DNA from: a virus
Taxonomy: Duplodnaviria > Heunggongvirae > Uroviricota > Caudoviricetes
Reading direction: 5' to 3' (one strand)
Length of the DNA: 46,496 bases
Virus record (IMG/VR): IMGVR_UViG_2630968543_000003
The position numbers and the translations under genes were made by a program. The notes below the pieces were generated by a model. It was not told where the DNA came from. It searched no databases and worked only from the letters and a program-made list of their open reading frames with translations. Below are positions 4,678 through 38,964 of this stretch, one piece after another (positions within the stretch are counted from its first letter, which is position 1; every line of letters starts with the position of its first letter).

Positions 4678-5505
4678 TTACTTAACCTGAATAAATGGTG
4701 TGTTGGCACCGCTGGTCATGTATTGCGGCAGTGTACCGTTCCACTTGTTGATGGCTTCCAGCTCCATAACACCGGGGTTCTGGCGCAGAGCTTCACCGCG
4801 TAAACGAATAGCATCGGCTTCGGCCTGGGCTTTTGTGCGAATCGCATCTGCCTGTCCGGCAGCTTCCGCGCGCAACATGTTGGCTTCCGCTTCGCGCTGT
4901 TTTACTTCCTGCTCGCGTTGCAGGGTTTTCTGGTTCGCCGTGACTTTGGCATTAATGCTGTCGATAACAGTAGGCGGGTACTCCGGCTTACCCACATATG
5001 AGAGGCTCATTACCTGAATACCGATGGGCGTCATTTCTTCCTGAATGTCTTTAAGAGCTGCATCCAGCAGCTCAGACTTGCCGCCGTCGATAAATTTGTC
5101 GGTGGTCATTTTGCTGGCCAGTCGGTTGAGTGCGTCGGCTATCTTCTGGCGCAGGTCGGTGTCGGTAATGTCGTCCACGCCTTTGCGGTAGGTCTGAAAG
5201 ACTGTGGTAACTTTGGATGGATCAACTTTGTAGGCCACGCCGATGTGATAGCCGATGGTTGTACCGTCACTCATCTGGAAACTGAATGGATCATCGTAGG
5301 TCTTCATCTGCTTAAAGGTCGGGAAGATGTAAACCTCAGTGTTCCATCCCGTCCAGTAGCGCCCAACACCGACCACTTCACCGACGCCTTTATCGTCGCC
5401 CAGTTTGTTTACTTTGATGCCCACATTACCAGGCTCAACGCGATCGCAACCGACAAGGCCAATGGTCGGCAGAACAAGGGCTAAAGCAAAAAGTAATTTT
5501 TTCAT
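4678..5505 (-). CDS. SPFH/band-7 (prohibitin-like) domain lipoprotein
   Basis: 275 aa; signal peptide with lipobox LVGC; SPFH-like core followed by an Ala/Glu/Arg-rich coiled-coil tail; AAGGA RBS; ATG at 5505. Confidence 0.75.
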   Translation of the reverse strand: MKKLLFALALVLPTIGLVGCDRVEPGNVGIKVNKLGDDKGVGEVVGVGRYWTGWNTEVYIFPTFKQMKTYDDPFSFQMSDGTTIGYHIGVAYKVDPSKVTTVFQTYRKGVDDITDTDLRQKIADALNRLASKMTTDKFIDGGKSELLDAALKDIQEEMTPIGIQVMSLSYVGKPEYPPTVIDSINAKVTANQKTLQREQEVKQREAEANMLRAEAAGQADAIRTKAQAEADAIRLRGEALRQNPGVMELEAINKWNGTLPQYMTSGANTPFIQVK

Positions 5506-7280: not shown

Positions 7281-7468
7281 GTTCTTTGCTCCTTAAATGC
7301 ATCGCATGCGCTTCTGGCGTATTGTTGTGCCAGTAAAAAGATATCATCCGAAAGTTCATCACATTCTTCATCACCGGAAGCCGAAATGATTAACCCCGCT
7401 TCAAGCAGTACGGCAATGTGATGAAAAGCTGTTTCCGGTTCGTTGGTGAGGCCTTTGAACATTTTCAT
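7277..7468 (-). CDS. hypothetical small protein (63 aa, MKMFKGL...)
   Basis: Internal ATG at 7468 with AGGAGG RBS; overlaps the stop of the upstream HTH gene. Confidence 0.4.
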   Translation of the reverse strand: MKMFKGLTNEPETAFHHIAVLLEAGLIISASGDEECDELSDDIFLLAQQYARSACDAFKEQRT

Positions 7469-7469
7469 C

Positions 7470-7913
7470 TTATGCTTCCTCCTGATTTTGTTTATAAGCA
7501 CCAGTCAGTAACCACATTGGATCGCAGCCAAGAAGATTTGCCAATGGGATAATTTTGTCGCAAGTAGGAATTGCTGAGTCATTTTCCCATAACGAAACAG
7601 CCTGAACAGTCACTCCAGCACCGCTGGCAATATGATGTTGTTGAAGACTTGCTGATTTACGCGCTTGGAGAATACGTTGACCGAAAGATAATGCTGGGGA
7701 ATTACTAGCGCTAACTTCTTTGGTAAATAAATCAACATTAGCGCCGGGAGCGCTACTATCTGTAAAGGAATTCATAGTTGAAGAGATGATGTCTTGTGCA
7801 ACATCTAAGAGGTTGATGACGTCATGGTTTGAAGCGGTACCGCCTAATAGTGCCGCTTGAGCACAAATCAACAGAGAGTTTACGGAATAAGAGTCATGTT
7901 TATCATTTAACAT
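7470..7913 (-). CDS. HTH (XRE-family) transcriptional regulator with the HTH at the C-terminus
   Basis: C-terminal FGQRILQARKSASLQQHHIASGAGVTVQAVSLWENDSAIP matches the Cro/C1-type helix-turn-helix pattern; ATG at 7913 with GAGGTGA RBS 5 nt upstream. Confidence 0.55.
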   Translation of the reverse strand: MLNDKHDSYSVNSLLICAQAALLGGTASNHDVINLLDVAQDIISSTMNSFTDSSAPGANVDLFTKEVSASNSPALSFGQRILQARKSASLQQHHIASGAGVTVQAVSLWENDSAIPTCDKIIPLANLLGCDPMWLLTGAYKQNQEEA

Positions 7914-7914
7914 T

Positions 7915-7953
7915 ACATTCACCTCACTTGTTTTTACTTGCTGAGGTGAATGT
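7915..7953 (-). promoter_or_regulatory. perfect 12-bp inverted repeat (ACATTCACCTCA, 15-nt spacer, TGAGGTGAATGT) overlapping the RBS of the HTH gene
   Basis: Arms at 7915-7926 and 7942-7953 are exact reverse complements; on the minus-strand mRNA the downstream arm contains the GAGGTGA Shine-Dalgarno of the ATG at 7913. Confidence 0.45.
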
Positions 7954-8025
7954 AGCGCTATGCGTTATTCTTGACAATAGCAAAATGCTAATATTTGCTG
8001 TTTTTTTTATAGTGCGTTGTATTTA

Positions 8026-8481
8026 TTATTCATTTTCGTCTTTGTCGATCGGCATTCTTGATGCTTTAACAGCCATTAGCTCATCAAGTAGTTTGTCAAA
8101 ATTACGTTTCTTTTCAGATAACTCACTGATTATCCTGTCTTTTTCGCTTTCAGGCATTTGTCTGAATAACTCAATAAGTCGAGTCTCTCTTTTAGTTAGT
8201 TGCTGTTCATCAATAGTGGTCTCACCAGTCTTTTCCCTCATTTTAGCTAGATGCCATGGGGAATCCAGCAATGAGTGGGGGATGTCAAACCATCCTTCTG
8301 ATAGGCTCAGTCGCCCCTCGAGTTTTCTAGCGAGAGCAGTTCCCATATTTCTGCGCTTAGTCATTATTTGGCTTATAAGTGAGGGTGATATCTCACATTT
8401 TAACGCCAGATCTGTCTGGGTTAAGCCGCTGCGTTGGATTACCGTCTGTAGATTTTTTAAGCGAATATCTTTGATTTCCAT
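8026..8481 (-). CDS. prophage repressor, RacR/CI-like, HTH only (no S24 peptidase domain)
   Basis: N-terminal HTH (LTQTDLALKCEISPSLISQIMTKRR); start taken as the only in-frame ATG at 8481 (track ORF extends to a TTG at 8568); divergent from a Cro-like gene across an operator-rich gap. Confidence 0.6.
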   Translation of the reverse strand: MEIKDIRLKNLQTVIQRSGLTQTDLALKCEISPSLISQIMTKRRNMGTALARKLEGRLSLSEGWFDIPHSLLDSPWHLAKMREKTGETTIDEQQLTKRETRLIELFRQMPESEKDRIISELSEKKRNFDKLLDELMAVKASRMPIDKDENE

Positions 8482-8494
8482 GCTTGTCTCATTG

Positions 8495-16561: not shown

Positions 16562-18345
16562 AGCCGTCGGATGGAGAAGGCGCAGTTATCAGCACCACCA
16601 GCAACCCGGAGTATTACTTTGTTGTTGCCCTGGCCGGGCAGTCAAACGGTATGGCGTATGGTGAAGGGCTTCCACTGCCGGAGACATATGACCGTCCGGA
16701 CCCGCGTATTAAACAGCTGGCGCGTCGCAGCACTGTCACGCCGGGTGGTGCGTCCTGTAACTACAATGACATTATTCCTGCGGACCACTGCCTGCATGAT
16801 GTTCAGGATTTGAGTAAGTTTTCACACCCGAAAGCCAGTGCAGCTCAGTATGGATGCGTGGGGCAGGGATTACATATCGCGAAGAAATTGTTGCCGTTTA
16901 TTCCGGCGAATGCCGGTATTCTTCTGGTTCCGTGCTGCCGTGGTGGTTCTGCATTTTTGGCGGGCGATGAAGGTACCTTCAGCGAATCCACCGGCGCAAG
17001 CGAGACCTCGGCACGCTGGGGTGTAGATAAGCCACTGTACAAGGACCTGCTTACCCGTACTCAGGCCGCACTGAAGGCCAACCCTAAAAATATTCTGCTT
17101 GCAGTGGTCTGGATGCAGGGCGAGTTTGATTTGAAACAGGGTGCATACGCCACTCAGCCGGGGCTGTTTGATTCCATGGTGGAAAAATATCGTTCTGACC
17201 TGTCGGAATTCGGAGGTCAGTGTCTCGGGGGCTCTCCGTCATCGGTTCCCTGGATTTGTGGCGACACGACCTACTACTGGAAGCAGACTTATTCTTCGCA
17301 ATACGATGCGGTGTATGGTGCATACAAGACGAAATCCGCAAAAAAAATCTTCTTTGTGCCGTTTATGACGGATGAAAACGGGCGAAATGTGGGTACCAAC
17401 GAGCCGTCAGAAGATCCGGATGTTGCGGATATTGGGTATTACGGAGCCGGTGGTCGAACGGACGCCAAAACCTGGACGACGGCTGACCGTAAAACGCATT
17501 TTGGATCATGGGCACGTCGTGGGATTATTTCCGACCGTCTGGCAACGGCGATTCTTGTGCATGCCGGGAGAACCGCTGAATTCATTACCGGAAAACAGCC
17601 TGATACGGTGAAGCCCACCGGACCTTCCGGTGAAGGTACGGAGAGAGAGCCGGAAGGTCCGGTCAGTAACCGAACCCTGATGAGTCTGCTGGCGTCCGGC
17701 GAAGACCTGGCATCACAGGGCTGGCGCTATTATCACAAACCGGCGAGCGGAGACAATGTTAACAAAAACATTGCTGAAGCGGTGGTCAGTGATGCGGGGG
17801 CTACGGGAGGTAAGGCCCTGCAACTGAATAAACCGGAAAACCACATCTGGTTTCTGGAGCATGATGCAGCCGGGCAGGGGGCAGAGTTGCTGAAGAAAGG
17901 AGGACGTGTGAGCGTACGGTTTAAGTTGCCGGGTTCACTGGTGCCGAATCAGTTTGCCCTGGGCATTTACTGGCAGTTGTCGTCCCTGCCGGAGGGAGTG
18001 ACGCTGGCAGAGGAAGGCAACGACATGCTGATGTCCTTCTTTCTGCAGACGGATGCGACGAACCTGAACGCGATGCACCACAAGAAGCCGAATGCGAAGC
18101 TGGAAACGTTCGGGGTCTTTGATAACGGATGGCACACACTGGCTTTTGAGTTTGCCGGAAACAACAGCATTCAGGTGACGCCGGTACTGGATGAGAAACG
18201 GGGGACGCCGTTCACACTGGTGAAATCTCCGGCATCAGGGGCGGCGGACAAACTGCAACTGACAGGCATATCAAAGGCGGCGACATATACGCTGCTGATT
18301 GACAGTGTGAAGGTGGAAGTGAACAACGCGGATGCCGCGGCATGA
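16552..18345 (+). CDS. nanS: prophage sialate 9-O-acetylesterase (NanS-p-like, SASA family)
   Basis: 597-aa ORF from a GTG; GQSN motif (ALAGQSNGMAYGEG) typical of SASA esterases; located between tRNAs and lysis genes. Confidence 0.7.
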   Translation: MVVKPSDGEGAVISTTSNPEYYFVVALAGQSNGMAYGEGLPLPETYDRPDPRIKQLARRSTVTPGGASCNYNDIIPADHCLHDVQDLSKFSHPKASAAQYGCVGQGLHIAKKLLPFIPANAGILLVPCCRGGSAFLAGDEGTFSESTGASETSARWGVDKPLYKDLLTRTQAALKANPKNILLAVVWMQGEFDLKQGAYATQPGLFDSMVEKYRSDLSEFGGQCLGGSPSSVPWICGDTTYYWKQTYSSQYDAVYGAYKTKSAKKIFFVPFMTDENGRNVGTNEPSEDPDVADIGYYGAGGRTDAKTWTTADRKTHFGSWARRGIISDRLATAILVHAGRTAEFITGKQPDTVKPTGPSGEGTEREPEGPVSNRTLMSLLASGEDLASQGWRYYHKPASGDNVNKNIAEAVVSDAGATGGKALQLNKPENHIWFLEHDAAGQGAELLKKGGRVSVRFKLPGSLVPNQFALGIYWQLSSLPEGVTLAEEGNDMLMSFFLQTDATNLNAMHHKKPNAKLETFGVFDNGWHTLAFEFAGNNSIQVTPVLDEKRGTPFTLVKSPASGAADKLQLTGISKAATYTLLIDSVKVEVNNADAAA

Positions 18346-38856: not shown

Positions 38857-38931
38857 AATGTGAAGATATTCAGAATTTTTATGCCATTACCGGTTTTAAC
38901 CAACAGGATTATCGGTGGGCATGAAAGAAAA

Positions 38932-38964
38932 CCCCGGTATCTGCTGATACCGGGGTTTCTCTTT
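38932..38964. terminator. bidirectional intrinsic terminator in the I-J gap
   Basis: Perfect 10-bp stem CCCCGGTATC/GATACCGGGG with 4-nt loop, A-rich upstream and TTTCTCTTT downstream. Confidence 0.5.

Follow-up and report, generated by a model that had tools for sequence, protein, structure and literature searches.

We analyse here a perfect inverted repeat in the immunity region of a lambdoid prophage that is integrated beside mlrA in Escherichia coli. The prophage DNA is the viral record IMGVR_UViG_2630968543_000003 of IMG/VR, and the whole stretch of 46,496 nucleotides is called the window in the following. The repeat sits in the 112-bp gap between two co-directional genes of the minus strand, the upstream one encoding a CI-like repressor and the downstream one, termed HTH2, encoding a second regulator with a helix-turn-helix (HTH) domain. 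HTH2 is the first gene of the leftward early operon, which ends in xis and int, and its start codon, ATG 7913, is identical in the RefSeq/PGAP annotation. With somewhat better than even confidence, we propose that the repeat is an RNA foldback of the kind present in IS10, which would separate two classes of leftward transcript.

In a preliminary description of the window, made by reading the letters, 12-bp arms were placed at 7915-7926 (ACATTCACCTCA) and 7942-7953 (TGAGGTGAATGT) with 15 nt between them, and on re-reading they are indeed exact reverse complements. The perfect repeat is one base longer on each side than was first noted, with arms of 13 bp (Table 1). On the minus strand the element reads TACATTCACCTCA-GCAAGTAAAAACAAG-TGAGGTGAATGTA, with the 3' arm stopping one base short of the HTH2 ATG (7913-7911), which follows directly. 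The Shine-Dalgarno (SD) sequence GAGGTGA assigned earlier to this ATG does lie within the downstream arm, 5 nt before the start codon. With 100 dinucleotide shuffles of the whole window taken as the chance control, perfect repeats of at least 12 bp with a loop of at most 40 nt occur at a mean of 0.13 register-hits per shuffle, while the real window has three of them. The RNA fold of the element has an energy of about -18 to -19 kcal/mol, with z = -7.0 versus shuffles. No other copy of the arm sequence with at most one mismatch was found within the window, and a search of the whole window with Rfam 15 at the gathering threshold gave no match at the repeat locus. In a permissive Rfam scan of 7700-8700 the best score was 19.7 bits, versus a gathering score of 47, with E above 1. 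Note also that a one-codon open reading frame (ORF), ATG-TAA, overlaps the HTH2 start codon in GAATGTAATG (7912-7917, minus strand), and that in three distant relatives (L249-251) the homologous protein really begins at the ATG of that one-codon ORF, which lies within the 3' arm.

The sole promoter-like site on the minus strand of the intergenic gap is TTGTCA-17-TACATT, and the arm that comes first in the direction of transcription begins with its -10 hexamer. By the standard 7-nt distance, the own transcript of this early-left promoter is predicted to start at about A7942, with which the 5' arm ends. An operator, O1, and a degenerate one, O2, flank the promoter and are 25 bp apart, centre to centre; both are clear in the larger family, while the second of these left operators (OL) is degenerate in the clade of the window. 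Among 14 aligned relatives from Klebsiella, Raoultella, Salmonella, Shigella and metagenomes, variable columns number 1 of 19 in the operator, 2 of 6 in the -35 hexamer (TTG being kept), 10 of 17 in the spacer (the length being fixed at 17) and 0 of 6 in the -10 hexamer. A pattern search anchored on the positions of the operator and the hexamers returned at least 120 viral contigs, which together with the loci already fetched gave at least 87 distinct sequences having the module operator / TTGnnn / 17 / TAnATT. In 70 of the 87 listed module sequences the -10 hexamer is TAAATT or TATATT and is followed by wholly different leaders that have no strong pairing to the promoter region, many of them carrying a boxA-like CGCTCTTTAACAA. 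The leaders of these hairpin-less relatives are homologous to the phi80 pL leader, and the annotated phi80 pL -10 aligns base for base (GenBank JX871397; locus L379 860-901). Because the columns are conserved, the module is spread among different leaders and the phi80 pL -10 aligns, these sequence comparisons show that the hexamers are a probable promoter in their own right, not merely a hairpin arm. Moreover, a start-region motif common to the hairpin-less relatives, xACyCCATC, has its local counterpart in CACCTCA of the 5' arm, and the 5' arm is therefore ancestral promoter sequence, with the ribosome-binding site (RBS) side shaped to complement it.

Table 1. Features of the immunity region of the window (coordinates of the whole stretch).
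Feature	Position	Strand	Description
CI-like repressor gene	8026..8481	-	151 amino acids (aa), N-terminal HTH, no S24 peptidase domain; presumed read-through source
HTH2	7470..7913	-	147 aa; two-helix N-terminal domain and C-terminal CI/DicA-type HTH; PHROG 4836 'CII-like regulator'
-35 hexamer TTGTCA	7977-7972	-	early-left promoter; 17-bp spacer to the -10 hexamer
-10 hexamer TACATT	7954-7949	-	first six bases of the 5' arm
Operator O1	7977..7991	.	TTAGC-N5-GCTAA type; minus strand TTAGCATTTTGCTAT; last base overlaps the first T of the -35 hexamer
Degenerate operator O2	7966-7952	-	AACGCATAGCGCTAC; overlaps the spacer and the -10 hexamer
Right operators (OR)	8547-8561 (perfect), 8495-8509		TTAGC-N5-GCTAA
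Hairpin 5' (upstream) arm	7942..7954	-	TACATTCACCTCA; -10 TACATT (7954-7949), anti-SD CACCTCA, predicted start base A7942
Hairpin loop	7927..7941	-	15 nt, A-rich, GCAAGTAAAAACAAG; predicted 5' leader of the promoter's own transcript
Hairpin 3' (downstream) arm	7914..7926	-	TGAGGTGAATGTA; SD GAGGTGA (7925-7919) and 5-nt spacer to the start codon

A foldback of the IS10 kind calls for an SD within the 3' arm and for a co-directional, unterminated source of transcription upstream; in the window the SD lies within the 3' arm, and the CI-like gene upstream is on the same strand. Because the -10 hexamer and the predicted start lie in the 5' arm, the promoter's own transcript would be unable to form the hairpin, and with the 5' arm inside the promoter a role at the RNA level is therefore restricted to read-through transcripts from the upstream repressor gene. 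Based on this model, the own transcript, starting at about A7942, would hold the loop as a short A-rich leader (29 nt) together with the 3' arm, its SD would be free and HTH2 would be translated. The transcripts of the CI-like gene, meeting no terminator in this clade, would cross the promoter and carry both arms, and in this read-through RNA a 13-bp hairpin of about -18 to -20 kcal/mol would bury the SD and the spacer up to the base before the AUG, leaving HTH2 untranslated in the lysogen. By thermodynamics only, opening of the SD-AUG stretch takes 20-22 kcal/mol in the read-through RNA versus about 9 kcal/mol in the RNA starting at 7942. In a further, speculative step, Rho might terminate the untranslated RNA, which would insulate the whole early-left operon. 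The preliminary description had proposed that the hairpin sequesters the RBS of HTH2, and this proposal stands for any RNA that has both arms and falls for the gene's own mRNA, which is predicted to be without the 5' arm. The same description had named a transcript start downstream of the upstream arm as telling against sequestration; the start predicted at about 7942 would restrict the RNA role to read-through RNA without refuting it.

The read-through requires that nothing stops transcription behind the repressor gene, and the comparison among relatives bears on this point. For each of the 87 distinct module sequences we scored the pairing of the -10/+1 segment with the next 60 nt, regarding -12.6 kcal/mol or lower as strong, and recorded whether the 300 nt upstream contain an intrinsic terminator. 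Among the matches listed, an intrinsic terminator lies upstream in 0 of the 17 distinct hairpin-bearing sequences versus 66 of the 70 hairpin-less ones, the usual terminator of the latter being CCCGC-loop-GCGGG-T6, located after an S24-type cI. In the window, no terminator-like site was found in 7955-8025, between the stop codon of the CI-like gene and the hairpin. Regarding the four sequences that have neither a hairpin nor a terminator, three show no co-directional gene end within the 300 nt upstream, and in the fourth (L263) the terminator of L264 is present as a variant with a weaker tail. An especially telling natural control is provided by L263-265, in which the CI-like gene belongs to the same family (42% identity), the operator is the same, the promoter is TTGATA-17-TATATT and a homologue of the HTH2 N-terminal domain lies downstream; in these three the repressor gene is followed by a terminator, and the pairing does not exceed that expected by chance (-4.8 kcal/mol, z = -0.26). 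As a separate observation on the module, the form TTAGCAnTTTGCTATTG-N20-TAnATT occurs in at least 120 viral contigs (loci L268-L378, IMG/VR), and most of the module sequences listed combine a CI of the S24 type with a CCCGC..GCGGG-T6 terminator and a boxA-bearing pL leader like that of phi80. A scan of metagenome contigs with a 17-nt operator word gave mostly chance AT-rich matches and, among the matches listed, no new variant.

The pattern of conservation points to selection on both arms of the hairpin. The close clade has 12 distinct hairpin versions, where 3 of the 26 columns of the arms are variable versus 22 of the 32 columns of the adjacent spacer and loop (Fisher p = 1.3e-5). The 3' arm varies in 1 of 13 columns, at the loop-proximal base, while the loop varies in 12 of 15 columns and has a length of 15 or 13 nt, being A/U-rich throughout. 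In the close clade the arms have undergone two C-to-U changes, each of which makes a G-U pair in the mRNA sense, and show one mismatch at the closing of the loop; of five one-sided changes in the arms, four are G-U pairs in the mRNA sense (L023, L025, L248, L251). Distant relatives, the CI-like proteins of which are 52-83% identical to that of the window (52-60% for L249-251), keep the pairing despite different sequences. In L248 an A-to-G change leads to a G-U pair; in L251, CAUUCUUUUCAUC pairs with GGUGAAAAGAAUG, with a matched UUUU/AAAA insertion and a U-G pair; in L250 the SD is another one (GGAG) and pairs via UCCA/UGGA, with unequal (asymmetric) bulges; and L249 has a central A-A mismatch. 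The folds of all these distant relatives (L248-251) have energies of -13 to -20 kcal/mol with z of -5 to -7, those of L249-251 being -13 to -15 kcal/mol with z of about -5. In every one of them the 5' arm begins at the -10 hexamer and the 3' arm covers the SD, and in L249-251 the AUG is paired as well.

From these data a view of the evolution of the region can be put forward, which we offer tentatively, at somewhat less than even odds. The clade may have swapped the terminator between the repressor gene and the early-left promoter for a translational insulator built from the promoter, the RBS having evolved to be complementary to the region of the -10 hexamer and the start. Promoter, operator-adjacent region, anti-SD and SD would then be combined in one segment, and the repressor mRNA of the lysogen would enter the lytic operon and yet be silent there, perhaps with Rho-dependent termination.

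It should be noted that several points weigh against the foldback model. Consensus and homology are the grounds on which the start is predicted at about 7942, the read-through past the repressor-occupied operators in the lysogen is assumed, and a cost of leaky HTH2 expression is a conjecture. In the close clade there is no classical covariation, with no pair changed on both sides and 10 of the 13 pairs never varying; a shuffle control for covariation is uninformative because the arms barely vary. Some of the conservation of the arms could come from requirements that the -10 hexamer and the SD each have on their own. The symmetric changes seen in the distant relatives would be kept by a DNA palindrome too. 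The reverse strand is the more stable one in 4 of the 8 variants tested (WIN, L250, L249 and L013) and the less stable one in the other 4, and the sense strand is favoured by energy in the four G-U variants only, so that the discrimination between the strands is not decisive. Finally, the association of hairpin and terminator is phylogenetically clustered, perhaps reflecting one or two independent events, and its Fisher p = 1e-14 is thus an overstatement.

The foldback of IS10, and of IS50, distinguishes read-through transcripts from those of the element's own promoter (pIN). In IS10 the translation signals of the transposase are sequestered (Davis, Simons and Kleckner 1985, pmid 2416461, as cited in PMC13181058). 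The element studied here is like those of IS10/Tn10 and IS50/Tn5 in that the 3' arm of an inverted repeat lies over the translation start signals, and in that the own promoter fires inside or after the 5' arm (here by prediction), making the native RNA translatable, while RNA entering from upstream folds back. It differs in lying in a prophage immunity region rather than at a transposon end, in that the 'outside' transcription would be the phage's own repressor mRNA rather than that of a host gene, and in that the 5' arm is the -10 hexamer and the start region itself. It differs, moreover, in appearing to replace a terminator that related phages have after the repressor gene, and it is known from sequence alone.

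The genomic position and the logic, with transcription of the repressor gene kept out of the early-left operon, are those of the lambda tIMM-type and phi80 pL arrangements. As in phi80 pL, operators flank a TTGnnn-17-TAnAtT promoter and the -10 hexamers align (GenBank JX871397); phi80 itself shares the leader of the hairpin-less relatives and has different operators. In the phi80-like relatives CI is of the S24 type, the intrinsic terminator is strong, and nutL and an N gene are present, whereas the clade of the window has a 151-aa CI-like protein without S24, no terminator and, 29 nt from the predicted start, an HTH gene with the hairpin. No match to boxA (GCTCTTTAACA-like, at most 2 mismatches) was found in the immunity region of the window, the nearest matches being at 5048 and 16707. 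Another likeness is to IS200, where a stem-loop in the tnpA 5' untranslated region (UTR) sequesters the SD and represses translation (PMC4513863). A stable stem-loop burying a strong SD is common to both systems, but that of IS200 is in the native mRNA and constitutive, acting along with an antisense RNA and Hfq, whereas here the native transcript is predicted to be without the 5' arm.

Four other explanations have to be weighed. The precedent of IS200 (PMC4513863) would favour taking the preliminary description literally, i.e. a strong hairpin in the normal HTH2 mRNA that buries the SD and keeps translation off until a factor or an upstream ribosome opens it, and were the predicted promoter inactive, the sole HTH2 mRNA would be a bicistron of cI and HTH2. 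This explanation requires a start upstream of 7954, where that strand of the gap has no other promoter-like site. It is also at odds with the conserved module of operator, -35, 17-bp spacer and -10, which, as in pL of the phi80 type, puts the start at the end of the 5' arm, and with the need of an early-left operon containing xis and int for a repressor-controlled lytic promoter at this place; we consider it unlikely. The DNA operator that was raised as another possibility in the preliminary description is also unlikely, although by a shade less so. Here a phage or host protein would bind the two 13-bp arms, over -10/+1 and +15 to +27, and repress the early-left promoter, the overlap with the RBS being incidental. 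Two half-sites would be expected to have near-invariant arms with a variable spacer between them, as is seen; the element does overlap the -10 hexamer; an extra repressor site could be useful in a clade where the CI-type O2 over the -10 hexamer is degenerate; and a palindrome fits the symmetric changes in the distant relatives equally well. However, neither arm is palindromic, the arm centres are 28 bp apart (26 bp with the 13-nt loop), the distant relatives have unequal bulges, and such spacing and bulges differ, to our knowledge, from the geometry of known HTH dimers. In sequence the arms have nothing in common with the group operator TTAGC-N5-GCTAA present at OL and OR, and the phage has no other copy of them with at most one mismatch. 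The HTH domain of HTH2 has been swapped, occurring in at least three divergent versions beside identical arms, O1 and O2 already flank the promoter, and the 5' arm is the ancestral promoter/start sequence of hairpin-less relatives, only the RBS side being newly matched. An operator gives, in addition, no account of the restriction of the repeat to sequences without the terminator.

That last association could be read in another way, with the hairpin substituting for the terminator directly, either as a U-tract-poor terminator or as a processing or stability element for the transcript of the repressor gene, and with RBS sequestration as a side effect. The repeat does occur exactly in the clade without the CCCGC...GCGGG-T6 terminator after the repressor gene, and UUUAGC follows the stem in L249 and L250. 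Yet in the window the stem is followed by AUGUUAAAU, and the combination of a G+C-rich stem and a U-tract that characterizes an intrinsic terminator is absent; the earlier statement that the element is not a simple terminator, made because the bases after the hairpin (AUGUUAAAUGAUAAAC) contain no U-tract, is borne out also by a terminator scan, which gave no terminator-like site at the hairpin. Moreover, the constant coincidence of the 3' arm with the SD/AUG and of the 5' arm with the -10 hexamer would be left unexplained, which makes this explanation still less probable than the two above. Least credible of all, with a very small chance, is a cis-antisense small RNA (sRNA), in which the repeat would be the 5' stem-loop of a plus-strand RNA (about 7913-8008) that starts from a promoter-like TTTACG-16-TATCAT at 7879-7906, ends at a hairpin with T8 at 7976-8008 and pairs with the HTH2 leader. 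The plus-strand fold of 7905-8012 does consist of two hairpins followed by U8 (-31 kcal/mol, z = -5.2), and the plus-strand promoter has a 9/12 match, but this site lies in HTH2 codons that differ in relatives sharing the repeat (the MFSTN group), and promoter-like sites in the region are at chance, with 3 found versus 3.5 expected. The distal half of the 'terminator' stem has 13 of 28 columns variable and the proximal half coincides with operator O1, Rfam gives no match, and four G-U pairs of the mRNA sense become C-A mismatches on the plus strand. The plus-strand 'terminator' at 7976-8008 was itself rejected, being explained by operator palindromes beside an A/T run, with its distal half not conserved. 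Apart from this, the A/T run after the plus-strand operator palindromes (T8 in the window; 6-8 nt) is conserved among relatives.

The distribution of the prophage and the structure of its neighbouring genes are as follows. The 7400-8900 region is present nearly full-length (at least 93% of it, at an identity of at least 99.5%) in 19 of 5,426 complete genomes, and the carriers of the prophage are Shiga toxin-producing E. coli (STEC)/O157 and human-associated E. coli. The variation within E. coli is uninformative, 7860-8040 being 100% identical in all 19 carriers, and no isolated phage with this immunity module was found among the phage GenBank records. In the AlphaFold model of HTH2 the C-terminal five-helix HTH is confident, the N-terminal helical hairpin is of low confidence (pLDDT about 65) and a disordered linker lies between them. 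The gene is a mosaic, in which a conserved N-terminal domain of about 65 aa goes with the immunity block and is joined to an HTH core that comes in at least three unrelated versions (L007, L017, L018, L263-265); in L263-265 the N-terminal domain is a stand-alone protein of 88-89 aa. Because the promoters of the heteroimmune HTH2-like genes (L009, L011, L046, L050, L051) are ordinary and their leaders contain no more than a weak anti-SD, the hairpin architecture is not general to the HTH2 protein family. A profile search of genome contigs with the HTH2 alignment gave one irrelevant match.

Some further features of the window are noted in their own right. In OR, the perfect 15-bp site and a perfect palindrome of 14 bp, TGCTAATGTTAGCA, overlap, giving three alternating half-sites in a row (8539-8561). 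Divergent from the CI-like gene is a Cro-like HTH ORF at 8620-8820 (plus strand; or from ATG 8575/8587; Pfam HTH_3, E = 5e-4), which is unannotated in the RefSeq record NZ_CP069990.1. Rfam matches at gathering score at 15641-16232 comprise three tRNAs (15641-15889, plus strand), the sRNA STnc100 (15968-16176, plus strand) and the anti-Stx2 sRNA AsxR (16180-16232, minus strand), the match of the last being exactly at the threshold; Stx-phage-like prophages typically have such an arrangement of tRNA, STnc100 and AsxR in their late region. At 38929-38958 (plus strand) there is a perfect inverted repeat with 13-bp arms and a loop of 4 nt, reading AAACCCCGGTATC-TGCT-GATACCGGGGTTT and followed by CTCTTT; it lies in the 343-bp gap between a tail assembly gene and gpJ and is terminator-like. 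Another perfect inverted repeat, of 14 bp with a 19-nt loop, is located at 17617-17663 (plus strand; ACCGGACCTTCCGG ... CCGGAAGGTCCGGT), inside a frameshifted DUF6645 gene.

The principle of the foldback is already known from IS10 but is not known from phage immunity regions, and the present case is best filed as a new setting for it, a phage immunity region where a hairpin stands in for a terminator. If the foldback model is correct, the element would be a compact alternative to a terminator, one that keeps the lytic operon of the prophage silent while the adjacent repressor gene is transcribed through it, and the same 41 bp would encode the -10 hexamer, the transcript start, the leader, the RBS and a device that sorts 'own' from 'foreign' transcripts. 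The principle of IS10/IS50 would then extend to phage immunity regions. The model gives a testable rule, that a hairpin is to be found where the terminator is absent, and a signature that can be searched for, namely an RBS complementary to the -10 hexamer of its own promoter. For annotation, it is implied that such a repeat should not be labelled by default as an operator or a terminator. If the insulator reading is true, the 'promoter-complementary RBS' would be a signature of read-through insulation in other mobile elements as well, and the stability of the lysogen would depend on the fold of an RNA and not only on the occupancy of the operators by the repressor.

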